Sequence record: MN158206.1
Length of the DNA stretch: 46,880 bases
Reading direction: 5' to 3' (one strand)
From: Escherichia phage BEK2
Position numbers and translations under genes: made by a program. This document shows positions 3,169 to 44,925 of the stretch, one piece after another. A model generated the notes under the pieces. It saw only the letters and a list, made by a program, of their open reading frames with translations. It ran no database searches and had not been told where the DNA came from. Position 1 is the stretch's first letter, and each line of letters starts with the position of its first letter.

Positions 3169-4437
3169 ATGGTTAAGACAGACAGCTACGCCAATATATT
3201 TCTCGGCGGCAGTGATGGTAGTGAGATTTACGGGAGCTTACAGAATCAGGAACCTACAATTCTGGGTTCGCTTTATGCAAATAATGCCATAGTGCGTAGA
3301 ATTATCGACACAATCCCTGAGACAGCATTAGCGGCAGGATTCCACATTGATGGCATTGATGATGAGCCTGCCTTCTGGTCACGCTGGGATGATCTAGAAA
3401 TGACGCAGAATATTAACGATGCTTGGTCTTGGGCTAGATTATTCGGTGGAGCCGCTATTGTCGCTATCGTTAAGGACAATAGGGCGCTAACAAGTCCTGT
3501 CAGAGAAGGTGCCGAACTTGAAACTGTTAGAGTTTACGACCGCACACAAGTAAAAGTACAAACTCGCGAGGAGAATCCCCGTAACGCACGTTTTGGTAAG
3601 CCACTAACCTATCGCATTACCACAAATGAGAGCGATATGTTCTATGATGTGCATTACAGCAGAATTCACATCATTGACGGAGAGCGAATTCCTAACGTAA
3701 TGCGTCGGCAAAATGACGGCTGGGGCCGCAGCGTTCTATCCAGTGACATTCTTGACTCAATCAAGGATTACACCAACTGCGAACGACTGGCTACGCAACT
3801 ACTGAGAAGAAAGCAGCAAGCAGTGTGGAAAGCCAAAGGTCTGGCTGAGTTGTGTGATGATAGCGAGGGATTTGGTGCCGCAAGGTTGCGCCTAGCACAG
3901 GTTGATAATAATAGCGGAGTTGGTCAGGCGATTGGGATTGATGCAGAATCTGAAGAGTATAGCGTTCTAAACTCTGACATTGGCGGGATTGATGCGTTTC
4001 TGGATAAGAAGTTTGACAGAATCGTTGCTCTGAGCGGTATTCATGAAATTATCCTCAAGAACAAAAACGTTGGCGGCGTGTCATCAAGTCAAAACACTGC
4101 ACTTGAGACATTCCACAAGCTAATTGACCGCAAGCGTAACTCTGAGCTGCTTCCTGTTCTTGAGTTCTTAATTCCGTTCATCGTTAACGTTGACGAATGG
4201 TCGGTTGAGTTTAACCCCTTAGCTCAGGAATCAAGCAAGGACAAAGCGGAGATTCTGGAGAGGAACGTAAACAGCATCGCGACGCTAATTGCATCTGGCG
4301 CTATGGATATTGATGAGGCGAGAGATACATTGCGTACAATCGCTCCAGAGGTTAAGATTAGTGACGGTTCAGTAGAGACAGAGGTGACAATTAGTGAAAC
4401 CAGTAACGACCCGCTGGAAGTATCCGCAGACAATTGA
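3169..4437 (+). CDS. portal protein
   Basis: 422 aa, located between terL and the Mu-F-like head protein. GGAG SD before ATG 3169 (the 3142 ATG lies inside the terminator hairpin). Acidic C-terminus. Confidence 0.75.
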   Translation: MVKTDSYANIFLGGSDGSEIYGSLQNQEPTILGSLYANNAIVRRIIDTIPETALAAGFHIDGIDDEPAFWSRWDDLEMTQNINDAWSWARLFGGAAIVAIVKDNRALTSPVREGAELETVRVYDRTQVKVQTREENPRNARFGKPLTYRITTNESDMFYDVHYSRIHIIDGERIPNVMRRQNDGWGRSVLSSDILDSIKDYTNCERLATQLLRRKQQAVWKAKGLAELCDDSEGFGAARLRLAQVDNNSGVGQAIGIDAESEEYSVLNSDIGGIDAFLDKKFDRIVALSGIHEIILKNKNVGGVSSSQNTALETFHKLIDRKRNSELLPVLEFLIPFIVNVDEWSVEFNPLAQESSKDKAEILERNVNSIATLIASGAMDIDEARDTLRTIAPEVKISDGSVETEVTISETSNDPLEVSADN

Positions 4438-10501: not shown

Positions 10502-10545
10502 ATAGCACTTTTTGCTAAAGCACTTATCCAATCTTCCTGTATAGT
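10502..10545 (+). promoter_or_regulatory. box promoter cassette P2
   Basis: ATAGCACTTTTTGCTAAA (10502-10519), 22-nt spacer, TATAGT (10540-10545), then leader CATCGAAACGAAA (10551-10563). Confidence 0.65.
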
Positions 10546-10578
10546 TAACTCATCGAAACGAAATGAAGGAATTAAGAA

Positions 10579-21679: not shown

Positions 21680-21714
21680 TTTGTATTCCTTAGTAATTTC
21701 GTTTCGATGGAGTA

Positions 21715-21758
21715 ATAGTATCGCATCCTTGCGATCAGTGTTTAGCAATTAGTGCTAT
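21715..21758 (-). promoter_or_regulatory. box promoter cassette P3
   Basis: Minus strand: ATAGCACTAATTGCTAAA (21758-21741), 22-nt spacer, TACTAT (21720-21715), leader CCATCGAAACGAAA. The box encodes the last five residues (NSTNC) and the stop of the methyltransferase. Confidence 0.65.
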
Positions 21759-22460: not shown

Positions 22461-22504
22461 ATTATACTGCACAAAATTTATTGTTCTTTAGCAATTCGTG
22501 CTAT
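22461..22504 (-). promoter_or_regulatory. box promoter cassette P4
   Basis: Minus strand: ATAGCACGAATTGCTAAA (22504-22487), 22-nt spacer, TATAAT (22466-22461). The Rha stop TAG is inside the box. Confidence 0.65.
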
Positions 22505-23172
22505 TTCTTTTCCAGCAGCAGCTTGATGTCAATGCCGAGATTATTCTCAATCAATCCGGTCAGCGCATCATTCTTTTCTTTAAGAGCGAAGCATTGCGCT
22601 TCATACTTAAATCTTTCCTCCATCTCATTCGAGCGACTAGCCCAACACTGGCGAGCCTCACAAGCCAGCATATCGAGTTTTTCATCGGTATTCTTATCCA
22701 TGAGTAAGATCTCATTTATTCTTTGCTCTGCAACAATGCGCTGGCTCAGGTGTGCATTTTGCGCATTAGCCACACCAAGCATCATTCGAGCCTCTTTTAG
22801 CTCATCAATGCTTACCATCCGGCTGATTACTTCTGCTTGTTTTTTAACTAACGCCTCGAGCTCATGAAGTCGACGGATAACTCTGCGACGAAGAACTACG
22901 CTGTAGCCAGTGATTAGCGTTTCGGTGAGTTCCTTGTTGAGTAAAATCTCAGATGTATAGCCTCGATTATCCGTAAGTACTTGATAATCATCATGACCCA
23001 AATCTGGGGCATCGTTATAATGTAACAATTCATTGATCATTTCCTTTGTGTCGCGAACGACGTGATCATGACGCTTACCTGTCAATTCAGCAATTTCCTT
23101 CGTGCTCATCATGGTTTTTGGCTGTTCTTTGTACGCTTCAATTTTCATTTTAGTCTCTCTTATGCTTTTCAT
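22501..23172 (-). CDS. Rha-family phage regulatory protein
   Basis: STKEIAELTGKRHDHVVRDTKEM is the Rha-domain signature; coiled C-terminal half. ATG 23172 sits in the 3' arm of an 8-bp hairpin (ATGGCTCA/TGAGCCAT), so ATG 23148 or 23112 may be the real start. Confidence 0.7.
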   Translation of the reverse strand: MKSIRETKMKIEAYKEQPKTMMSTKEIAELTGKRHDHVVRDTKEMINELLHYNDAPDLGHDDYQVLTDNRGYTSEILLNKELTETLITGYSVVLRRRVIRRLHELEALVKKQAEVISRMVSIDELKEARMMLGVANAQNAHLSQRIVAEQRINEILLMDKNTDEKLDMLACEARQCWASRSNEMEERFKYEAQCFALKEKNDALTGLIENNLGIDIKLLLEKK

Positions 23173-23699: not shown

Positions 23700-23743
23700 A
23701 TTGGCAAAACCAATTGGACTGGCTACGGTACCGAATATATAGT
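23700..23743 (+). promoter_or_regulatory. degenerate box promoter cassette P6
   Basis: ATTGGCAAAACCAAT inverted repeat (23700-23714) at the box position, TATAGT (23738-23743), leader CATCGAAAGCAAGC (23749-23762). Confidence 0.45.
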
Positions 23744-23780
23744 TACCTCATCGAAAGCAAGCAACCAGAGAGATACAGAA

Positions 23781-24944: not shown

Positions 24945-24988
24945 ATAGCACGAATTGCTAAAACAAGGTGGGATAGCTGAGGTATAGT
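24945..24988 (+). promoter_or_regulatory. box promoter cassette P7
   Basis: ATAGCACGAATTGCTAAA (24945-24962) directly after the stop TAA, 22-nt spacer, TATAGT (24983-24988). Confidence 0.65.
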
Positions 24989-25020
24989 TATACCATCAAC
25001 AACGGACGAGGTTAAAGAAA

Positions 25021-29139: not shown

Positions 29140-29157
29140 ATAGCACGAATTGCTAAG
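29140..29157 (+). promoter_or_regulatory. orphan box copy, antisense to the local operon
   Basis: ATAGCACGAATTGCTAAG on the + strand between two minus-strand genes. Nearest -10-like hexamer is TATAAA (29180-29185) at 24 nt, and it runs straight into the terminator hairpin. Confidence 0.5.
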
Positions 29158-30126: not shown

Positions 30127-30164
30127 ATTAATCTATCTCTTAACAAATAAAAAAGGATGTACCT

Positions 30165-30209
30165 ATTATGGCACATCCAATTCTTTACTCTTTAGCTTTT
30201 CGTGCCAAT
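30165..30209 (-). promoter_or_regulatory. box promoter cassette P9 (variant box)
   Basis: Minus strand: TTGGCACGAAAAGCTAAA (30208-30191) right after the stop TAA, 22-nt spacer, CATAAT (30170-30165). A GGATGT/ACATCC hairpin plus a T-run overlaps the -10. Confidence 0.5.
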
Positions 30210-30397: not shown

Positions 30398-30438
30398 TTT
30401 GTATATCCTTGTTTAGTTTATCGGCTTTCGATGTGTTA

Positions 30439-30482
30439 ACCATACCTCATCCATGAGAAATGTCTTTAGCTTTTCGTGCTGC
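30439..30482 (-). promoter_or_regulatory. box promoter cassette P10 (inside coding sequence)
   Basis: Minus strand: GCAGCACGAAAAGCTAAA (30482-30465), 22-nt spacer, TATGGT (30444-30439), leader ACATCGAAAGCCGA. The box is translated as AARKAK near the C-terminus of the HTH protein. Confidence 0.5.
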
Positions 30483-30932
30483 CTCGTTAGCGGCCTTAAT
30501 CTTGCGCCATGAGCGACACTCTGGCTTGGTGGCTAATTCTGCATCAGTGACCACGCGCAGCATGTGACGTTTTTTGCAGCGCAGGGTTAGAGGCTTGCCA
30601 TTGCCGTCGAATTGCAGATCTGGTCGGCAGAATGTGGCTCTAAAACCTTCCCCGGTTCGTTTGTAGTAGTTGTGCGATAACTGAGCACCACGTGCGGAAA
30701 TCATGCCGCGCTTAAACCATTCTTCTACAGCCTGTGGTGTTACCTTTAGCTGCTTTGCGATATTCGCTTTTGTGCCGAAGAAATCAAGAACTATATCTAG
30801 TCGCGCGCGTAGTCCGGCTCTTACTTCATCTTTTAAAACGTAGTAGCCTGAAGGTCGTTTGCGTTGTTTTTTGTCTTCAGTGCGGATAGTTCCGTTGTTC
30901 CCGTTGATTGTTCGCTTGTCGACTGTATTCAT
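30447..30932 (-). CDS. HTH DNA-binding protein (Cro/YdaS-like), candidate transcription regulator
   Basis: GTKANIAKQLKVTPQAVEEWFKRG is a helix-turn-helix segment. Basic N- and C-termini. GAGGT SD. Confidence 0.6.
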   Translation of the reverse strand: MNTVDKRTINGNNGTIRTEDKKQRKRPSGYYVLKDEVRAGLRARLDIVLDFFGTKANIAKQLKVTPQAVEEWFKRGMISARGAQLSHNYYKRTGEGFRATFCRPDLQFDGNGKPLTLRCKKRHMLRVVTDAELATKPECRSWRKIKAANEAARKAKDISHG

Positions 30933-30944
30933 TTCATTACCTCA

Positions 30945-30987: not shown

Positions 30988-31014
30988 TGTACTCAATTAA
31001 ACGCTACAAGACAA
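30986..31014 (-). promoter_or_regulatory. sigma70-type promoter for the HTH gene
   Basis: Minus strand: TTGTCT (31014-31009), 17-nt spacer, TACAAT (30991-30986). Its -10 overlaps the -10 of P11 by 2 bp. Confidence 0.5.
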
Positions 31015-31033
31015 TTTTTATAGGAATTTAGAT

Positions 31034-33028
31034 ATGTTGCCTATCGAGAAGCTGGTTGCCAACTTCGACAAAGAAAGAATCAAGCAGATTCAGAAAGACT
31101 ATCAGTTTGGTGAGATAACCCCTTACGAATTCCAGTGTGTAACATTTGATGCAATTGGCAAGGCTATTGGGAAGTACGAGGCCCCATTTATCGCTGACCT
31201 TTCAGTATCTGCGGGTAAGACAATCATTCTTGCCATGATTGGTAAGCGCATGGAGCAATTGGGGTTGCCTTATATGGTGCTCTCTCGCCAGTCAGAGATA
31301 ATCGGTCAGAACTCGGAAGAACTTCGCAATTTCGGCATCCGTAACAGCGTCTATTGCGCTGGCCTTAACGTTAAATCAGTTTACTACCCGACTATAGTGG
31401 CTAGTGAAGGCACTGCGGCTAACGGCTTGTTTAAGGGGCTTGGTGACTATGTTCCGGCAGTTATAGCTATAGATGAATGCCACATGGTAGATCACATGGA
31501 TATCGTGGAAGCAGAGGAGAACGAAGAAACATTTGAGCAAATGAGCACAAAGAAAGGCGAGATGGTTTTCAAGGATGGCGTTAATACCGGATTGCTTGGC
31601 ACTGGTCGCGCACAGTACACGCTAATAATTATTGAGATGAAGCGCCGATGCAAAGAAAAGTACGGTCGTGAGCTTCGTATCTTTGGCCTTACTGGCAGCC
31701 CGTATCGTAACAATGATCATATTGTCGTTAGCAATCCAAATGTTCGTGGATTCTGGCGCAAAACAGTGATTCAGGTTCCAACGAATTACCTTGTTGATTT
31801 GGGGTTTGTTGTACCAACCGTTTACGGAGAGGTTGGTGATTTGGGTTACGACCTTAGCGAATTTTCGCCAGACGGTAGTGATGGTGTGAAAGACTTTAGT
31901 AAGAAAGAAATGGATGCGATGACTGCGAAGATTCACGACAACCAATCCATGACTCAAAAGATAATGCAGTTTGTCGTCAAAATACTGGAGACTCGCAACG
32001 CCGCATTGGTCACCTGCGCTGGAAAACTCCATTGTGATGAGGCTGCTGCGGCATTGCCGGATGGATACCCTTACGCCATTATCACCGATTCTACCGGAGA
32101 GAGGAAGCGCAGAGAGATTCTTGCAGATTGCCAGACTGGAAAGTACAAGATTATCTTTCAGATTGGATGCCTAACTACGGGCGTAAACCAACCGCTGTGG
32201 GATACTAGCGTCATACTACGCAAGATTGGCAGTCTAACATTAATGATTCAGCTTCTTGGTCGTGGCATGCGAAAACTAAAAAAGGCGCACATAGATGCTG
32301 GGTTCAAGAAGGAAGACCACTTGGTATTAGACTTTGCCGGAGCGCTTGATGACATGGCAGAGCTTTACTTTGACCCAATAATTGAAGAGATTCAGGCTGA
32401 AAAGTTTAAATCCTCAAGAAAAGGTGGTGGTGAGGTTCGCCAGTGTCCGCAATGTGGATATGAGAACTCGCCATTTGCTAGACGCTGTAGCAATAAGATT
32501 GATGGTGTTAGATGCGATCACTTTTTCCAGTTCACAACATGTGATGATATTACCGACCAACAAACAAAGGCAGTAATCAAGAAAGGTTGTGGAACTAAAA
32601 ATGACATAGCAGCAAAAGTTTGTCGTGAATGCGGAGAAATGCTTAAAGACCCAAACGCTAACCTGACTGGAAAGATGTATCGTCGCGGAGACTATTTGCG
32701 TGTTTATGACTTCCAGGTTGGATTGAGCAAAAATCAAACTGGCATAGTAGTTAAGTATAATATCATGGCGCACAACGGAGAAAGATTTAACGCTTGGGAG
32801 TTCTTTAATCCAGAGTCTGACCATCGAGTTTGTAGTGTGCTGTGGAAAAACTTTTGCCTTTCTCATATTGAGAATCGCACAGAAGCAGCACGAATTGGCA
32901 GACTGAAGAATGCCAGAATGATTATGACTAACGCAGATAAGTTTCGTGCGCCAGTCCAGGTGACACACCGCAAGAATGGCAAAGGAAAGGACGTGATCGC
33001 TTTTAAGAATTTTGGAGAATTGTTATGA
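31034..33028 (+). CDS. SF2 DNA helicase with C-terminal zinc ribbons
   Basis: Walker A SVSAGKT, DEAH-type AIDECH, motif VI-like LLGRGMR. Two CxxC...CxxC ribbons (CPQCGYEN...RRCS; CGTKND...CRECG). Confidence 0.85.
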   Translation: MLPIEKLVANFDKERIKQIQKDYQFGEITPYEFQCVTFDAIGKAIGKYEAPFIADLSVSAGKTIILAMIGKRMEQLGLPYMVLSRQSEIIGQNSEELRNFGIRNSVYCAGLNVKSVYYPTIVASEGTAANGLFKGLGDYVPAVIAIDECHMVDHMDIVEAEENEETFEQMSTKKGEMVFKDGVNTGLLGTGRAQYTLIIIEMKRRCKEKYGRELRIFGLTGSPYRNNDHIVVSNPNVRGFWRKTVIQVPTNYLVDLGFVVPTVYGEVGDLGYDLSEFSPDGSDGVKDFSKKEMDAMTAKIHDNQSMTQKIMQFVVKILETRNAALVTCAGKLHCDEAAAALPDGYPYAIITDSTGERKRREILADCQTGKYKIIFQIGCLTTGVNQPLWDTSVILRKIGSLTLMIQLLGRGMRKLKKAHIDAGFKKEDHLVLDFAGALDDMAELYFDPIIEEIQAEKFKSSRKGGGEVRQCPQCGYENSPFARRCSNKIDGVRCDHFFQFTTCDDITDQQTKAVIKKGCGTKNDIAAKVCRECGEMLKDPNANLTGKMYRRGDYLRVYDFQVGLSKNQTGIVVKYNIMAHNGERFNAWEFFNPESDHRVCSVLWKNFCLSHIENRTEAARIGRLKNARMIMTNADKFRAPVQVTHRKNGKGKDVIAFKNFGELL

Positions 33029-33444
33029 AAATTACAGACAAAGTTGACTACATTGAGTTTTACCATGGCCCGGTTAAGTCTTGCCCGAAAGAGGATGACG
33101 AGCAAATCTTTTGCTCTGATTGGGTTAAGTATAACTATCCAGAGATGGTATTTTTCCACTGCGTGAATGAGGGTAAGAAAACCATTGGTCAGGCAAGAAA
33201 AGACCAGGCCAAGGGGCTTCTCAAAGGCGTATCAGACTGTATGTTTCTTATTCCCGAATCTATCCGAGGAAAGTACCCTTTCGGAGCCATAGAGCTAAAG
33301 AGGGCTGGGAAGACGCAGGCTAGTCCGGTCAGCGACGAGCAGAAGTCATTCCTTAAAAGCGTAAGAGAATCAGGAGGTTTTGCCGGGGTAGCCTACGGTC
33401 GCGAGGGTTTTCTAGCGGCGTTTAAAGAAATGATTTCAAAATAG
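33025..33444 (+). CDS. VRR-NUC domain nuclease
   Basis: GVSDCMF...GAIELKRAG has the D...ExK arrangement. ATGA overlap with the helicase gene. Confidence 0.7.
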   Translation: MKITDKVDYIEFYHGPVKSCPKEDDEQIFCSDWVKYNYPEMVFFHCVNEGKKTIGQARKDQAKGLLKGVSDCMFLIPESIRGKYPFGAIELKRAGKTQASPVSDEQKSFLKSVRESGGFAGVAYGREGFLAAFKEMISK

Positions 33445-33484
33445 CACGAATTGCTAAAGACGTTTCGTTGAGTTGGTGTATTAT
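33441..33484 (+). promoter_or_regulatory. box promoter cassette P12
   Basis: ATAGCACGAATTGCTAAA (33441-33458; stop TAG inside), 22-nt spacer, TGtATTAT/TATTAT (33479-33484), leader CATCGAAACGAAACG (33490-33504). Confidence 0.7.
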
Positions 33485-33522
33485 CTATTCATCGAAACGA
33501 AACGCACAAAGAGAGAAAGAAA

Positions 33523-33723
33523 ATGGCTACTATCTTTACTGGTAAAATCTACGAATCACGCAAAACTGGTTATGAATATGAGTTGGTTATCACAGAAGAT
33601 GGTTACATACTTACTGATACTGATGATATGTCTTACGCATTCGAAGTTAGCCCGACTTACAAAGATGACCTGGAAACTGTTAAAAACGCATTTGGCGAAA
33701 AATTTGATGAGGTATTCGAATAA
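33523..33723 (+). CDS. hypothetical small protein (FTGKIYE...ITEDG family)
   Basis: 66 aa. Preferred over overlapping ORF 33473-33742 because it follows the leader/SD and couples (TAATG) to the next gene. Confidence 0.6.
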   Translation: MATIFTGKIYESRKTGYEYELVITEDGYILTDTDDMSYAFEVSPTYKDDLETVKNAFGEKFDEVFE

Positions 33724-33944
33724 TGGCAATTTTTACATTTGAAAATCAATGGGAAGTTTTCCAGGCGATGGCGGCTAAGGAGTTGCATAAAGCTGGGTAT
33801 AAATATAATGGCTGGGATATGGTTTGGTGCCTGGACATGAGTTTTGAACATGATTACCTGAACACAGATATCGAAACATGGCGTGACCGTATGGTTGCAG
33901 ACATTACTGAAATGAAAAAAGATTGCCCAGAGGATTTTGAATAA
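33723..33944 (+). CDS. hypothetical protein
   Basis: 73 aa, TAATG coupling at both ends. Confidence 0.6.
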   Translation: MAIFTFENQWEVFQAMAAKELHKAGYKYNGWDMVWCLDMSFEHDYLNTDIETWRDRMVADITEMKKDCPEDFE

Positions 33945-34069
33945 TGAAAATTGCAGACAAAGAGATGTTCGAGATCGCACAGACTTATGCAAGTTACGCA
34001 GTTAAAACTGGTTCAGAATATTGCTGGATGTGCGCTAAAGAATACCTAAAAATGGCTTACGGACTATGA
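33944..34069 (+). CDS. hypothetical micro-protein
   Basis: 41 aa, not in the ORF track. It exactly fills the gap, with TAATG and ATGA overlaps to its neighbours. Confidence 0.45.
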   Translation: MKIADKEMFEIAQTYASYAVKTGSEYCWMCAKEYLKMAYGL

Positions 34070-34314
34070 TAGTTGAAACAGGACGAGCCGCAGTATGGGC
34101 GCACTGCGGAGAGGCGGGAATCCAGGATGACATTAAGCAGATCTCTCGCTTCTTTGACATAAAAGATATTAGCGTTGTGTTCAATGGTAAATTCTCTTAC
34201 ATGGATGATCGACCAAGAAAATACGTAAGAGTTAAGCCAGGTGTCGGGATTGATGTTAATGAGTTCCTCAAATCTGAGGGATACAAGTTTAAGATAAAGA
34301 AGCCTAAGGATTAA
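34066..34314 (+). CDS. hypothetical protein
   Basis: 82 aa, ATGA coupling. Confidence 0.6.
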   Translation: MIVETGRAAVWAHCGEAGIQDDIKQISRFFDIKDISVVFNGKFSYMDDRPRKYVRVKPGVGIDVNEFLKSEGYKFKIKKPKD

Positions 34315-34316
34315 GC

Positions 34317-34568
34317 ATGTTGGGTTTAGATTTTCAGCCAGAGCATTACGATTTAGTGCATGGGAAAAGTGGCACAAAGTTTAGAGCGATACCTATTACT
34401 GACTGGTTTCCTCCTGATTATGTGGATGTGAATGCAAAAACTAAAGAAGGTAAGTGGGTGCAGATTTATCATTCTCCAGCATGCGGAAACCTGTGCATGA
34501 CTGACCTTGACCAGAAGTTAACAATTAGTGCTGATTTAATTGACTACTGGTTAAAAGAAGTTGAATGA
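34317..34568 (+). CDS. hypothetical protein
   Basis: 83 aa, AAGGA SD. Confidence 0.6.
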   Translation: MLGLDFQPEHYDLVHGKSGTKFRAIPITDWFPPDYVDVNAKTKEGKWVQIYHSPACGNLCMTDLDQKLTISADLIDYWLKEVE

Positions 34569-34650
34569 AGATCATAATACTAGTAGCATTAGTCCCACTG
34601 TTTAGCTCTACTATCTTATACTTTATCGTAATGAATTAAGGAACTTATAA

Positions 34651-35781
34651 ATGGCAACTGCAAAGATTAGCAACGAACAACTACGCGAAGAACTGGCAAG
34701 TGGCATGACCAACAAGGCAATCGCAGAGAAGTACGGAATGAACATTCGCAATGTTGAATTGCGTCGTAGTAAATTGGCTAAGAGCGGGGAATTGCACGGG
34801 AACCCAGGCATCAAGAAACTAGTTCCTGACGGTTATATGGTTAAAGGCACATCAACAATGATTGACGCGGAAGGTAACGAGAAGATCAGATGGGTTAAAA
34901 CTTCAATAGATAATGAGCGACTTGAGGTTTTAATGGAGCAAGCGCGTGAGGCTTTTTGCTCTGATTTGCCAAAGGCAGATTCGGTCACCCACTCAGGTAA
35001 TGAGGTAAATTCTGAATTAATGACTCTTTACCCGATTTTTGATATCCATATCGGCATGATGGCTCATCGACATGAGTCTGGTGAAAATTATGACACCAAT
35101 ACCGCAGAGAAATTAATGGAATCATATTTCGATCATGCAATTTCTGTATCACCATCATCAGAGAAGGCTGTGATTTTGGTTGGCGGTGATTTCCTTCACT
35201 CTGACGGACTGGAGGCTGTAACTCCAGCAAGTGGGCACTGCCTTGATCAAGATAGTCGATATGCCAAGTTAGTTTATGTGGCAATTCGCTCAATTCGCGG
35301 TGCGGTAGAGAAGATGCTTAAGAAACACAAGGAAGTCGAGATTCAAATCATAGAGGGAAATCATGACCAAAGTGGTATGATTTGGCTTCGTGCGGCAATG
35401 GCTGCATTTTATGAAAGCGAGAGTCGCGTGTTTGTTGATACCAGCCCGGCAATCATGCACAAAACACGATTTGGCTCAACACTACTTGGTTACACGCACG
35501 GTCACACGATGAAGAAAGCAGAAGGCAGGCTTGCAGCTATGGCAACTGATTACAGGAAAGATTTTGGTGAGTGTGAATTTGTTTATTGCCACTCCGGGCA
35601 TTTTCACCACGCAACTGTTACAGAGTGCACTCTTGGGATTGATGAGGTTCACCCAGCTCTGGCTAGCAAGGATGCATATGCCGCTCGAGGAGGGTGGCGA
35701 TCATATCGCCAAGCGGCTGCAATTGTTTACCACAAGAATTTTGGCGAGGTTGGTAGACACATTTATCGCCCAGGTATGTAA
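34651..35781 (+). CDS. HTH-domain / calcineurin-like metallophosphoesterase fusion protein
   Basis: N-terminal GMTNKAIAEKYGMNIRNVELRRSKL (HTH). Phosphoesterase motifs DIHIG, GGDFLH, GNHD, THGH, GHFHH. Confidence 0.7.
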   Translation: MATAKISNEQLREELASGMTNKAIAEKYGMNIRNVELRRSKLAKSGELHGNPGIKKLVPDGYMVKGTSTMIDAEGNEKIRWVKTSIDNERLEVLMEQAREAFCSDLPKADSVTHSGNEVNSELMTLYPIFDIHIGMMAHRHESGENYDTNTAEKLMESYFDHAISVSPSSEKAVILVGGDFLHSDGLEAVTPASGHCLDQDSRYAKLVYVAIRSIRGAVEKMLKKHKEVEIQIIEGNHDQSGMIWLRAAMAAFYESESRVFVDTSPAIMHKTRFGSTLLGYTHGHTMKKAEGRLAAMATDYRKDFGECEFVYCHSGHFHHATVTECTLGIDEVHPALASKDAYAARGGWRSYRQAAAIVYHKNFGEVGRHIYRPGM

Positions 35782-35825
35782 ATAGCACTTTTTGCCTAAA
35801 GCATGCCGTAGAAATGCGGCATAAT
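35782..35825 (+). promoter_or_regulatory. box promoter cassette P13 (1-nt insertion variant)
   Basis: ATAGCACTTTTTGCCTAAA (35782-35800) directly after the stop TAA, an ATGCCG/CGGCAT hairpin in the spacer, CATAAT (35820-35825). Confidence 0.5.
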
Positions 35826-35866
35826 TACCACATCTAAACGAGATGAACTAAACGAGGAAACACAAA

Positions 35867-36043
35867 ATGACTAAAATGATTTATTGCACCAAAAACAATT
35901 CCAAGACCCTGCCATTTACAGTTAACCAGCCGTACAACGCAGAGTACCAGGGCGATGGATATTACAAGATTTATGGAGACGATATGAAGCACATCTTAGC
36001 GCCGATTGATGGTTCGTTGGTTGAATTTATTATCGCTGACTAG
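35867..36043 (+). CDS. hypothetical small protein (FTVNQPY...YGDD family)
   Basis: 58 aa, below the track cutoff. Follows P13 and is followed by a strong terminator. Confidence 0.5.
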   Translation: MTKMIYCTKNNSKTLPFTVNQPYNAEYQGDGYYKIYGDDMKHILAPIDGSLVEFIIAD

Positions 36044-36070
36044 CGCAGCAAAAACATAGTGTTACGAACG

Positions 36071-36095
36071 GGGAGCCTTTTGGCTCCCTTTTTTT
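36071..36095 (+). terminator. rho-independent terminator
   Basis: GGGAGCC-TTTT-GGCTCCC followed by T7. Confidence 0.85.
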
Positions 36096-36173
36096 ATGCT
36101 TCTTTTCCTAGCGGTGCTAATGTATCATTCTTTTATTAACTTAAACATTGACAAATACATAAAGGTGGATCAC

Positions 36174-36389
36174 ATGAGGGAGGTAATTAACGCCGCTACG
36201 GCATCAACTGGAGGCGCTGCGGTAACTGGCGCGGCAACTGGTCAAATGACTATAGCAATAATCAGCCTTATCGCTCTAATCATTTTTGGAGCCTGGGGTG
36301 CTTACTGGAAGTATAAGGATAGTCAAGCTATTCGTCGAGCCCTTGAGTCTGGCGACCTGAAAACGGCAATCAATATAAGGAGCAAGTAA
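36174..36389 (+). CDS. holin (pinholin-like)
   Basis: 71 aa from ATG 36174 (AAGGTGG SD). A weakly hydrophobic Gly/Ala-rich segment, a strong TM (MTIAIISLIALIIFGAWGAYW), and a charged C-terminus. Immediately upstream of the SAR endolysin. Confidence 0.65.
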   Translation: MREVINAATASTGGAAVTGAATGQMTIAIISLIALIIFGAWGAYWKYKDSQAIRRALESGDLKTAINIRSK

Positions 36390-36875
36390 ATGAAGCAGAA
36401 GCTGGCCATTAGTGCTGCGACAGCTGCGGCAATATACATAGCAGCGCCACTTATTGAGCTTGTGGAGGGTGTAGAGAATAAGCCGTATATTGACATTGCT
36501 GGGGTGAAAACAGTTTGTTCAGGGATCACTGGCAACGACGTAGTTTGGGGTAAAACTTACAGTAACAGGGAATGCAGAAACCTGCTGGAGAAACACATTC
36601 AGATTCATGGGAAGCATGTTCAGGATGCTGTAACCTACCAAATTGCACCGCAGACAAGGGCGGCTTTAATCAGCTTTAGCTACAATGTTGGCGGCTCTGC
36701 GATGAGGAAGTCTACGGCTGTTAAATTAATTAACCAGGGCAAGATTGAGCAAGGTTGCAAGGCTCTCGGGATGTGGGACAAGGCTCGAGTTAACGGGAAA
36801 CTGAAGGTAGTTAAAGGCCTGGTGAATCGCAGGAATGAGGAGATTAAGTTATGCTTAAGTGGATTGCAGCGTTAG
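36390..36875 (+). CDS. SAR endolysin (T4-lysozyme/GH24 type)
   Basis: N-terminal signal-anchor AISAATAAAIYIAAPLI. Catalytic E-x8-D-x5-T spacing in EGVENKPYIDIAGVKT. Overall pattern as in the P21 R family. Confidence 0.8.
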   Translation: MKQKLAISAATAAAIYIAAPLIELVEGVENKPYIDIAGVKTVCSGITGNDVVWGKTYSNRECRNLLEKHIQIHGKHVQDAVTYQIAPQTRAALISFSYNVGGSAMRKSTAVKLINQGKIEQGCKALGMWDKARVNGKLKVVKGLVNRRNEEIKLCLSGLQR

Positions 36876-37240
36876 TGATGTGCGTAGCTTTATCTGGATG
36901 CTCAGCAACATCTGCTCTGACCGGGTTAATTGGCAGCAAGCCAGAGATTAGCGCACAGGCTGGAGCAGAAAACAACAATGTTGGAGTTGGGTTAACGAAT
37001 AAGGTTGACCACAGTAACTCCAGCGATGCCACCGTCAAAGATTCTAAGGTTGGTTCACTAGATAGCTCGAGCGGGAAAAAGACTTCTGATAACTCTATTA
37101 AGGCATCAACAATCACGGCAGAAAAGATTGAGATTACAAACAACGAATCATCAGCGCTTCCGTGGGTTGGAACTGGGGCTATGGGGTTACTGGTTTTTGT
37201 TCTCCTGGCCGTAATCTTAAGACGTAAAAAAGCCTCCTAA
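36851..37240 (+). CDS. unimolecular spanin (u-spanin)
   Basis: Lipobox LSG-C at the N-terminus plus a C-terminal TM (WVGTGAMGLLVFVLLAVIL) in one 129-aa chain, as in T1 gp11. Overlaps the endolysin 3' end. Confidence 0.75.
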   Translation: MLKWIAALVMCVALSGCSATSALTGLIGSKPEISAQAGAENNNVGVGLTNKVDHSNSSDATVKDSKVGSLDSSSGKKTSDNSIKASTITAEKIEITNNESSALPWVGTGAMGLLVFVLLAVILRRKKAS

Positions 37241-39893: not shown

Positions 39894-39929
39894 TTTGTTT
39901 TCCTTTTCGTGTTTCGTTTCGATGAGATT

Positions 39930-39973
39930 AATATACAGGAAAAGCCCCGAAGGGCTTTAGCAATTAGTGCTAT
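39930..39973 (-). promoter_or_regulatory. box promoter cassette P16 with nested terminator
   Basis: Minus strand: ATAGCACTAATTGCTAAA (39973-39956), a 22-nt spacer containing AGCCC-TTCG-GGGCT, TATATT (39935-39930), leader CATCGAAACGAAAC. The box encodes NSTNC plus the stop of the upstream gene. Confidence 0.65.
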
Positions 39974-41262: not shown

Positions 41263-41300
41263 TTTTATCTCCGGTGTGTTCGTTTCGTTTCGATGAAGTA

Positions 41301-41344
41301 ACTATACGCCATCCGTGGCGGTGAGTTTTAGCAATTCGTGCTAT
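41301..41344 (-). promoter_or_regulatory. box promoter cassette P17
   Basis: Minus strand: ATAGCACGAATTGCTAAA (41344-41327), a 22-nt spacer with a CGCCA/TGGCG hairpin, TATAGT (41306-41301), leader CATCGAAACGAAACG. The box encodes NSTNC plus a stop. Confidence 0.7.
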
Positions 41345-41633: not shown

Positions 41634-41670
41634 TTTTGTGTCTCCGTGAGTTCTTCGTTTCGATGGAGTA

Positions 41671-41715
41671 ATAATAGCGAATCACACCCGATCGGTCATT
41701 AGCAAAAAGTGCTAT
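41671..41715 (-). promoter_or_regulatory. box promoter cassette P18
   Basis: Minus strand: ATAGCACTTTTTGCTAAT (41715-41698), 23-nt spacer, TATTAT (41676-41671), leader CCATCGAAACGAAG. Confidence 0.6.
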
Positions 41716-42798: not shown

Positions 42799-43322
42799 TG
42801 TTTGACTTTAACGAGGATAAACTGACAGAAGAGCAGGTTATGCAAGTAGCCATGGCAGATAGCCTTCCACCACTACGTGTTGCAATCAGCGCTAACGGGT
42901 ATCGACAGTCAACGGCGTTTTGGGGTTCGATTGATACCTCAGAGGTGTATAGTGGTGATGAGCTTGGTGTACTGATTAAAATCATCAGGAAAATGGGAGT
43001 TAACGGCAAAGGAGTTGTCGGCATTAGGTCTCTATACGAAGGTGCTCGCAAGGTTAAGCCCTTTGAGGGTAGCAATGGAATCATGGCGCGTATTAAGGAT
43101 GAGCTCATCCCAGCTCTAGAGGAAATTAATATCGCTTGCCTAATTGGAGATAAGATTTATGTCCACCCAGCTATCATTGATGAGTACTGGCAACCCAACT
43201 TCAAAACTTACGAAGGTGAGCACCCCAGTAGACTACCACACCACTTGCGATACAGTGACGATGAGATAATAAAGGCGATTCGGTTCTACTGGGAAGCTAA
43301 ATCACTGCTTAGCGGCGGATAG
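42798..43322 (+). CDS. domain-deleted paralog of the 37883-39466 P-loop protein (N- and C-terminal modules only)
   Basis: First 42 aa are 32/42 identical to the full-length protein. NGKGVVGIRSLYEGARKVKPFE matches its C-terminal module. No Walker motifs. Unique 45-aa tail. Confidence 0.7.
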   Translation: MFDFNEDKLTEEQVMQVAMADSLPPLRVAISANGYRQSTAFWGSIDTSEVYSGDELGVLIKIIRKMGVNGKGVVGIRSLYEGARKVKPFEGSNGIMARIKDELIPALEEINIACLIGDKIYVHPAIIDEYWQPNFKTYEGEHPSRLPHHLRYSDDEIIKAIRFYWEAKSLLSGG

Positions 43323-43362
43323 CACGAATTGCTAAAAGGGGATTCATCCTGACTGGTATAAT
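43319..43362 (+). promoter_or_regulatory. box promoter cassette P19
   Basis: ATAGCACGAATTGCTAAA (43319-43336; stop TAG inside), 22-nt spacer, TGgTATAAT (-10 at 43357-43362). Confidence 0.7.
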
Positions 43363-43392
43363 CCCCACATCAACCACGCGAATGGAAGTTAA

Positions 43393-44149: not shown

Positions 44150-44193
44150 ATAGCACTTTTTGCCTAACCCTCTTCGGAGGGTTTTGTTATAGT
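44150..44193 (+). promoter_or_regulatory. box promoter cassette P20 with nested terminator
   Basis: ATAGCACTTTTTGCCTAA (44150-44167), CCCTC-TTCG-GAGGG-TTTT (44168-44185), TATAGT (44188-44193), leader CATCGAAAGCAAAC. Confidence 0.6.
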
Positions 44194-44231
44194 TATCCCA
44201 TCGAAAGCAAACAACCAAACGGAGCTACAAA

Positions 44232-44855: not shown

Positions 44856-44895
44856 CACTAATTGCTAAAACAGTATTGGGGTAATTTGTTATAGT
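44852..44895 (+). promoter_or_regulatory. box promoter cassette P22
   Basis: ATAGCACTAATTGCTAAA (44852-44869), 22-nt spacer, TATAGT (44890-44895), leader CATCGAAACGAACG (44901-44914). Confidence 0.7.
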
Positions 44896-44925
44896 TACCC
44901 CATCGAAACGAACGAGGAAGCAGAA

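Follow-up and report, generated by a model that had tools for sequence, protein, structure and literature searches.

The DNA analysed here is a 46,880-nucleotide (nt) stretch of Escherichia phage BEK2 (MN158206.1), called the window below. The element under study is a 14-mer, CATCGAAACGAAAC, which lies on the plus strand at 33490-33503, before a start codon at 33523, and closes a cassette of regular build. The cassette opens with a box, TAGCACGAATTGCTA (33442-33456), a 5-5-5 palindrome whose TAG serves as stop codon for the upstream gene. A variable 22-nt spacer (33457-33478) separates this box from a -10 hexamer, TATTAT (33479-33484), which a first-pass annotation of this DNA had given as TATAGTTA. 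The first base of the 14-mer would be C(-1), the A at 33491 is the predicted start of transcription (+1), and the remainder would be initial transcribed sequence, to +13.

About 20 cassettes of the window, which bear CATCGAAACGAAAC or a weaker version of it, follow the same order: box, 22-nt spacer of unrelated sequence, -10, a 5-nt discriminator that is often C-rich, CA(T), and an A-rich, T-poor segment. With at most one mismatch the box, TAGCACnnnTTGCTA, matched the window 16 times (0.44 expected). With at most two mismatches the 14-mer matched it 8 times (0.50 expected), a number reached in 0 of 100 shuffles, and three copies (33490, 39924 and 41295) agree at 14 of 14 positions; the conserved block that the annotation had reported after the -10 is thus present. 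Every copy is oriented toward the next gene, with 5 nt between a -10-like hexamer and the 14-mer, and in all of them the C of CATCG is the 6th and the A the 7th base past the hexamer, as had been described. The annotation had considered that the motif might be equally frequent outside promoter contexts; the scan at up to two mismatches found no window copy outside a promoter-like context. The sequences flanking the 14-mer are unlike one another between window copies, so that the copies are neither recent duplicates nor the leftover of a duplication. The predicted leaders are 22-36 nt long, A-rich and essentially unstructured (minimum free energy 0 to -4.4 kcal/mol), which puts the start codon about 9-23 nt past the 14-mer, instead of the 15-40 nt first proposed. 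In some cassettes AAACGAG merges into the Shine-Dalgarno (SD) sequence.

The conservation of this block was measured in the family of T1-like phages. The IMG/VR database was scanned with a pattern made of the box, 16-26 nt and TATAGT, which left the downstream bases unconstrained, and phage T1 was added; this gave 421 unique cassettes that fall into 243 clusters by downstream gene, with columns anchored on the -10. The spacer measures 22 nt in 202 of 271 family cassettes (about 75%). Past the -10, the consensus of the 243 non-orthologous cassettes is C(-1)A(+1)TCGAAACGAA (columns ..cCc C A T c g A A A c g A A). Columns -1 to +11 carry 0.1-0.9 bit and read CATCGAAACGAA, with 0.72 bit at -1, 0.87 at +1, 0.40 at +2, 0.59 at +5, 0.76 at +6, 0.53 at +7, 0.62 at +10 and 0.61 at +11. 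Spacer columns carry about 0.05 bit, and the per-column information that the annotation had proposed to compute therefore exceeds that of the spacer at the predicted start. Since the family columns spell the same sequence, the window 14-mer is the family consensus.

At +2, 142 of the 243 cassettes have T and 40 have C, and T does not exceed about 12% from +4 to +12. The most frequent 8-mer at the start register is CATCGAAA (46/243); CATC is found near the start in 95 cassettes, and 87 of these have it at the exact start register. The distribution of matches is bimodal: 64 of the 243 clusters (about 26%) match the motif at 11 or more of 14 positions, and 19 match it at all 14. The strength of the motif did not correlate with the -10 score, the presence of TGn, the type of hairpin or the spacer length. 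A second leader class was observed in T1 at 3536, 4865 and 47116(-), where the start is TATTGAAG or TCGTTGAG, followed by a conserved AACCAATCAG(A)GG immediately ahead of the start codon; among the 243 clusters, 10 have TATTGAAG as their start 8-mer.

Conservation was also compared within orthologous cassettes. In 37 orthologous clusters, divergence was 0.122 at -1 to +7, about 1.8-fold below the flanks (0.217 in the spacer, 0.219 in the discriminator and 0.194 at +8 to +19; Wilcoxon p = 8e-4, 8e-4 and 0.016 respectively). The block is therefore more conserved than spacer and discriminator both from one cassette to another and within sets of orthologous cassettes, which indicates selection of its own, beyond recognition of the -10. 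This purifying selection is strongest at -1 to +7, and the block stands at the canonical distance for a transcription start. The annotation had taken the shared leader for a second layer of control and had listed promoter escape among its possible forms; selection on the block itself stands, and escape is the option that we favour among those listed, whereas the idea of a phage-specific factor does not hold, as shown below.

The same start sequence occurs in phages unrelated to T1. A scan of IMG/VR with TAnnnT-N5-CATCGAAACGA gave at least 121 matches; among the matches listed, only 10 have a box, and many box-less ones follow an ordinary -35/-10 pair. The bare 14-mer provided an unbiased test, as this pattern contains no promoter part. 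Among the 80 IMG/VR matches listed, 48 are in the phi80-type PL leader, 6 in T1 cassettes and 26 in other contexts, and TAnnnT stands in the exact register in 7 of these 26, against about 0.4 expected. In phi80, PL reads TTGACC-17-TTTAAT-tactc-CATCGAAACGAAACATCGACAGC: an exact CATCGAAACGAAAC begins the transcript, in the same register past the -10 of a host sigma-70 promoter (TTTAAT-tactc-CATCGAAACGAAAC), and the annotated O-L region ends at C(-1). This promoter differs from the window cassettes by its canonical -35 at 17 bp, by a leader in which nutL follows the motif and the N gene starts about 410 nt downstream, and by its single copy per genome. In phi80-type prophages, many different PL operator/promoter cores (immunity types) join one and the same leader at the start base (L158 9330-9400, L296 160-225 and about 48 others), so that the mosaic boundary coincides with +1. 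The lambdoid leader that bears the motif matched no family in Rfam.

Matches extend to T4-like and unclassified phages. Behind -35/-10 promoters of canonical type, the motif is found in T4-like phages and in other contigs. In a T4-like contig near Cronobacter phages S13 and LPCS28, -10 elements are followed by the whole motif or by its first 11 bases, and in one copy a GGGGTC..GACCCC hairpin surrounds the -10 and is followed by ATCGAAACGA. KVP40, also T4-like, has CATCGAAACGA and TATCGAAACGA starts behind -10 elements, and a 109-kb unclassified contig has promoter starts CATCGAAACAAAC, CATCGAAACGAAGG, CATCAACCAC (also a T1 and window variant) and ACATCGAGAGGGG. An 18-nt identity, CATCGAAACGAAACATCG, links a lambdoid PL to a T4-like phage. 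A scan of bacterial genomes gave 117 matches, against about 70 expected by chance; those in a promoter context were confined to Enterobacterales prophages, T1-like contigs and several Vibrio loci, the others being coincidences in coding sequences. Within the window itself, the copy at 23749 has no box. The motif is thus independent of the T1 box and not restricted to T1-like phages; it is a separable module, which corrects the first description of it as a leader peculiar to box promoters. Since promoters of phages without kinship to T1 have the same start sequence, the motif is probably a "good start" module of general use rather than a private control layer of the window phage. We also observed, in the 109-kb contig and in KVP40, repeated cassettes in which a terminator hairpin holds the -35 itself (AAAGGGTTGACnnnnGTCAGCCCTTT) and is followed by a -10 and a CATCGAAAC-type start (L182 2046, 4051, 4970 and 7149; L197 3725 and 6119); these represent another design of terminator-promoter fusion.

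With moderate confidence, we propose that CATCGAAACGAAAC is the start point and initial transcribed sequence of host sigma-70 promoters, where it would fix the start and aid promoter escape. The first part of this proposal, by which the motif comprises start site and initial transcribed sequence, is better founded than the second: escape is the most likely mechanism by analogy with T7 A1 and with studies of initial sequences. Host sigma-70 RNA polymerase would read compact intergenic cassettes whose -10 may often be extended (TGn) and whose spacer usually forms a hairpin. CA would set the start 7 nt past the -10; the purine-rich stretch without U past +2 and with AAA at +5 to +7 would then allow quick initial transcription and escape, as in the T7 A1 start AUCGAGAGGG, and the U-poor, unpaired and unstructured 5' end would be a by-product. 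Reading by the host enzyme agrees with the annotation of the virulent T1-like phage BEK3 (MN158207, 46,884 bp; Drexlerviridae, Braunvirinae; 100% identical to window 31000-37000), in which no RNA polymerase gene is listed, and with the TLS paper, according to which T1-like phages are expected to rely on the host transcription apparatus (PMC11447400).

Initial transcribed sequences are a known class of promoter element, as illustrated by T5 N25 and related strong promoters: the bases from +1 to about +20 alter productive output more than 10-fold, with recognition unaffected (PMC5961368; PMC12464699). A purine-rich non-template strand favours escape and a pyrimidine-rich one is bad for it (PMC12464699), and pyrimidine-G steps near +6 slow escape (PMC5961368). 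ATCGAAACGAAAC has the purine-rich, escape-favouring composition within +1 to +20, with purines at 9 of 13 positions, AAA at +5 to +7, CG steps only at +3/+4 and +8/+9, and no pyrimidine-G step around +6. Among the closest parallels are T7 A1 and A3, strong early phage promoters that are read by the host enzyme, as is proposed for the cassettes. Their annotated starts are C followed by ATCGAGAGGG (A1) and C followed by ATGAAACGACAG (A3), also given as CATCGAGAGGG and CATGAAACGACAG, and as CATCGAGAGG and CATGAAACGAC. T7 A1 has CATCGA in common with the motif, and T7 A3 has CAT and GAAACGA. The A1 initial sequence is purine-rich, with no U from +3 to +20; it gives facile escape on three promoters, and A1 itself escapes at +8 (PMC12464699). 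The T7 promoters differ from the cassettes in having canonical -35 elements and neither box nor hairpin, the A1 discriminator measures 7 nt, the identity stops past +5 in A1, and the A3 match needs a 1-nt shift. Work on T5 N25 and other initial transcribed sequences has reported no common consensus motif, whereas here a specific consensus recurs across phage families. A sigma-dependent pause element of the lambda PR' type was considered and rejected: the motif has no T from +3 to +13, which leaves no room there for a -10-like hexamer (A as second base, T as sixth).

Several observations weigh against this proposal. Mapped 5' ends for T1-like phages were not found in the literature, and the start point is therefore a prediction. 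Many window cassettes have neither a -35 at 16-18 nt nor a correctly placed TGn, and polymerase binding may consequently not be tight, in which case escape may not be limiting. CG steps are present within the motif, at +3/+4 and +8/+9. The strong form is found in only about a quarter of the family cassettes, so that the motif is not obligatory. Finally, agreement at 14 of 14 positions in 19 T1-like clusters, together with the 18-nt identity across families, exceeds the specificity of generic rules for initial sequences. A tentative alternative is that the motif is a portable, sequence-specific start module of unrelated Enterobacterales and Vibrio phage families, among them T1-like phages, phi80-type lambdoids and T4-like phages, read by a particular host component rather than acting through generic composition; that component would be either a 5'-end-binding protein or the polymerase itself, touching the motif at a defined point during initial transcription, and the module would have spread by recombination of promoter cassettes.

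Another possibility, to which we give about the same modest weight, is an RNA stability element: a 5' end that is a poor substrate for RppH or RNase E would make phage messages longer-lived. RNase E cleavage favours a U two bases past the cut, as published cleavage maps indicate. The motif has no U past +2, T is at most about 12% at +4 to +12 in the family, and a role in stability is compatible with phi80 PL, where the start codon is distant. For E. coli RppH, a purine is the preferred second nucleotide (PMC7144940), and +2 is T or C in 142 and 40 of the 243 cassettes. The leaders are, however, unpaired at their 5' end, which is what RppH needs, the known solution being a protective 5' hairpin, and the constraint is strongest at -1 to +7, which includes the untranscribed C(-1); a role at the level of DNA or polymerase fits this better.

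It is improbable that the block has no function of its own and merely hitch-hikes as cassettes spread and are homogenized by recombination. This has been proposed for the PeSL (promoter-early stem-loop) cassettes of the T4-type phages RB49 and phi1, which have the same architecture and recombine with each other (PMC2839356). The hairpin around the -10 followed by ATCGAAACGA in a T4-like phage, and identical 14- to 18-mers in unrelated phages, would also be expected from such spread. However, gene conversion would also make the spacer, the discriminator and the leader past the motif uniform, and these are unrelated between copies; orthologous cassettes are less diverged specifically at -1 to +7; and the motif is found behind promoter cores otherwise unlike the T1 cassette, such as that of phi80 PL.

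A translational enhancer had also been named in the annotation, and the short leader could, in a related way, offer the ribosome a standby site; we consider either role very unlikely as the common function. With leaders of 22-36 nt, a 30S subunit bound at the start codon could indeed reach the motif, and these leaders are A-rich and unstructured, with AAACGAG running into the SD sequence in some cassettes. An enhancer would be expected at a fixed position, but the register of the motif is locked to the -10 and its distance to the start codon varies; in phi80 PL it lies about 410 nt from N, its first gene. Moreover, some copies in the 109-kb contig have no ribosome-binding site after them, and no copy lies upstream of the promoter-less internal genes of the window. 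We give least credence to a DNA or RNA binding site for a regulator or nuclease specific to the T1 family, in spite of the sharp bounds of the block, its 10-20 or so repeats downstream of a family-specific box and a weak 3-bp dyad (TCGAAACGA), as the motif also occurs behind the box-less window promoter and in phages (lambdoid, T4-like and unclassified) that have no regulators in common with the T1-like ones, and as its strong form is present in only about 26% of family cassettes. Two further candidates were discarded: a UCG/CGA mini-hairpin, as mutual information peaks at adjacent or near-adjacent columns of the initial transcribed sequence and the stem pairs are not in the top 12, and a site for IHF or Hfq, whose consensus sequences are unlike the motif.

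The upstream part of the cassette does not have the layout of a canonical promoter. A scan of the window for -35/-10 pairs gave 28 sites for 35.1 expected, which is not an enrichment, and it missed the cassettes. No TTGACA-like -35 was found at 16-18 nt from the -10 of the cassettes, where the TTGCTA of the box sits at 22 nt; the sole exception is the box-less copy at 23749 (TTGGAC, 18 nt). In all 18 window cassettes compared, the second base of the -10 hexamer is A and the sixth is T, and in the family the -10 columns reach 2.0 bit, a value partly forced by the selection pattern. As a possible mark of an extended -10, G is present at -14 in 178 and T at -15 in 109 of the 243 family cassettes; TGn is in register in 5 of the 18 window cassettes and shifted by one in two more. 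The box (TAGCA N5 TGCTA) has its midpoint about 42 bp before the predicted start and keeps a rigid 22-nt gap from the -10, a geometry which resembles a class II activator site more closely than a -35 element. A Roi-like DNA-binding protein is encoded in the window at 22501-23148(-), and a gene at 30451-30936(-), between primase and helicase, occupies the position of the C2-like regulator of T1.

The window box is the 21-nt direct repeat aaATAGCACnnnTTGnTAAAA of TLS, T1, Rtp and Rogue1. In the TLS paper, this repeat is described as co-oriented with transcription and about 76 nt upstream of start codons; only three sigma-70-like promoters are proposed for TLS, and the function of the repeat is left open between stoperator, enhancer and UP element (PMC11447400). 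The available parts of that paper, and its supplementary tables, describe the 21-nt repeat only, with neither a -10 at 22 nt nor a CATCGAAAC start (PMC11447400). In the window, the TAG within TAGCAC of the box very often terminates the upstream reading frame (33442-33444, 505-507, 2650-2652 and 43320-43322), and the same is observed in T1 at 1451, 2270, 3536, 6532 and 38954; in other cassettes the stop is a TAA just before the box, or lies in the centre or the 3' part of the box.

The region between box and start is often folded. From the end of the box to -1, family cassettes fold at -9.5 kcal/mol, against -4.1 kcal/mol for shuffled sequences, and 64% of them have z<-2. In many cassettes the arms vary in sequence with complementarity kept, the -10 is enclosed, and the 3' arm ends exactly at -1, as at window 44853 (GGGGTAA..TTACCCC) and T1 1451 (GGGGTA..TACCCC); such inverted repeats lie at 44872-44900, 43337-43367 and 24976-24993 in the window, and at 1451-1500 and other places in T1. 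Other cassettes have a GC hairpin and a T-run in the spacer and are terminator-like, a T-run following only some of the window hairpins. Since the hairpin ends by -1, it is outside any RNA begun at the motif. It may act as an attenuator, in the protection of RNA 3' ends or as a recombination site. A cassette at 30155-30207(-) has a variant box, TGGCACGAAAAGCTA, and a hairpin, GGATGTGCCATAATAGGTACATCC, that encloses CATAAT and is followed by TTTTTTATTT; this element looks like a plain intrinsic terminator before the primase gene.

This layout recalls the PeSL cassettes of RB49 and phi1, made of a stop codon, a sigma-70 promoter with a stem-loop over or between its elements, an SD sequence and ATG, for which promoter and terminator activity has been shown experimentally (PMC2839356). 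Like these, the window cassettes are repeated (about 20 copies), have stop codons in or next to the box and fold over the promoter; the PeSL cassettes, too, are intergenic, with a strong sigma-70-like promoter and a stem-loop that is often GGGG..CCCC. They differ by a -35 at normal spacing, an AT-rich upstream region and the lack of a palindromic TAGCAC..TGCTA box at 22 nt, and the start motif is not among the elements given for them in the available parts of their description (PMC2839356).

The ten copies that the first-pass annotation had classed as strong were all recovered at their positions to within one base, the 30.4-kb copy being at 30420-30433. Besides the focal copy, the exact ones lie on the minus strand at 39911-39924 (box 39958-39972, terminator-like spacer hairpin) and 41282-41295 (box 41329-41343, -10 TATAGT). 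CATCGAAACGAAAT occurs at 10551-10564(+), with a box at 10503-10517 and TATAGT at 10540-10545, and at 21696-21709(-), with a box at 21743-21757 and TACTAT as -10. On the plus strand, CATCGAAAGCAAAC (44199-44212) follows a box at 44151-44165, a terminator-like spacer hairpin and TGT-TATAGT; CATCGAAACGAACG (44901-44914) follows the inverted repeat GGGGTAA..TTACCCC that surrounds the -10 and ends at -1; and CATCGAAAGCAAGC (23749-23762) belongs to the box-less promoter, with TATAGT at 23738-23743, 18 nt from TTGGAC. The other minus-strand copies are CATCGAAAGCCGAT (30420-30433), with the variant box CAGCACGAAAAGCTA at 30467-30481, and CATCGAAACGAAGA (41652-41665), with a box at 41700-41714. Four weaker versions that had been listed are also real, all on the plus strand: CACACAAACGAGAT (2698-2711), CATCAACAACGGAC (24994-25007), CATCTAAACGAGAT (35831-35844) and CATCAACCACGCGA (43368-43381), the last with the CATCAACCAC start common to T1 and the unrelated 109-kb contig.

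A search of the literature for the motif string, for Drexlerviridae promoter motifs and for T1-like start sites or transcriptomes gave nothing relevant beyond the TLS paper (PMC11447400). Initial transcribed sequences that tune promoters, cassettes that combine promoter and stem-loop, and the T1 box are known already. Two points appear new relative to the searchable literature: the box repeat leads on, after 22 nt, to a -10 and then to a conserved CATCGAAACGA start, and one start sequence serves sigma-70 promoters in several phage groups that are not related to one another. The signals that direct transcription in T1-like phages are still ill-defined; if the repeat is taken as the head of a cassette that continues with 22 nt, a -10 and a CATCGAAAC start, each genome offers about 20 promoters that can be tested. 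The recurrence of the motif behind unrelated cores is a hint, from natural selection, at an initial sequence that performs well in E. coli and its relatives; the consensus CATCGAAACGAAAC is directly testable and could be used in promoter design if it works.

Several isolated elements were also observed. A perfect box at 29141-29155(+) lies between the start of the tail-fibre gene (29119, minus strand) and the end of the primase gene, opposing both; it is followed by TATAAA and by the terminator hairpin of the primase gene, has a T1 counterpart at 34903, and may be an antisense or a decayed cassette. A degenerate cassette (box 505-519, GATAAT, CAACAAAC) precedes a homing (HNH) endonuclease gene, 576-1088, an insertion that separates the small from the large terminase gene. 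Among database records, those of Campylobacter phage A110b and Pseudomonas phage PsgS01F are about 85-87% identical to the 6-kb query taken from the window (31000-37000), the PsgS01F record having the same length and hit statistics as that of an E. coli T1-like phage, and T1-like cassettes are present on a 46,669-bp contig of a Nitratidesulfovibrio liaohensis assembly; all of this is probably due to host mis-assignment or contamination.

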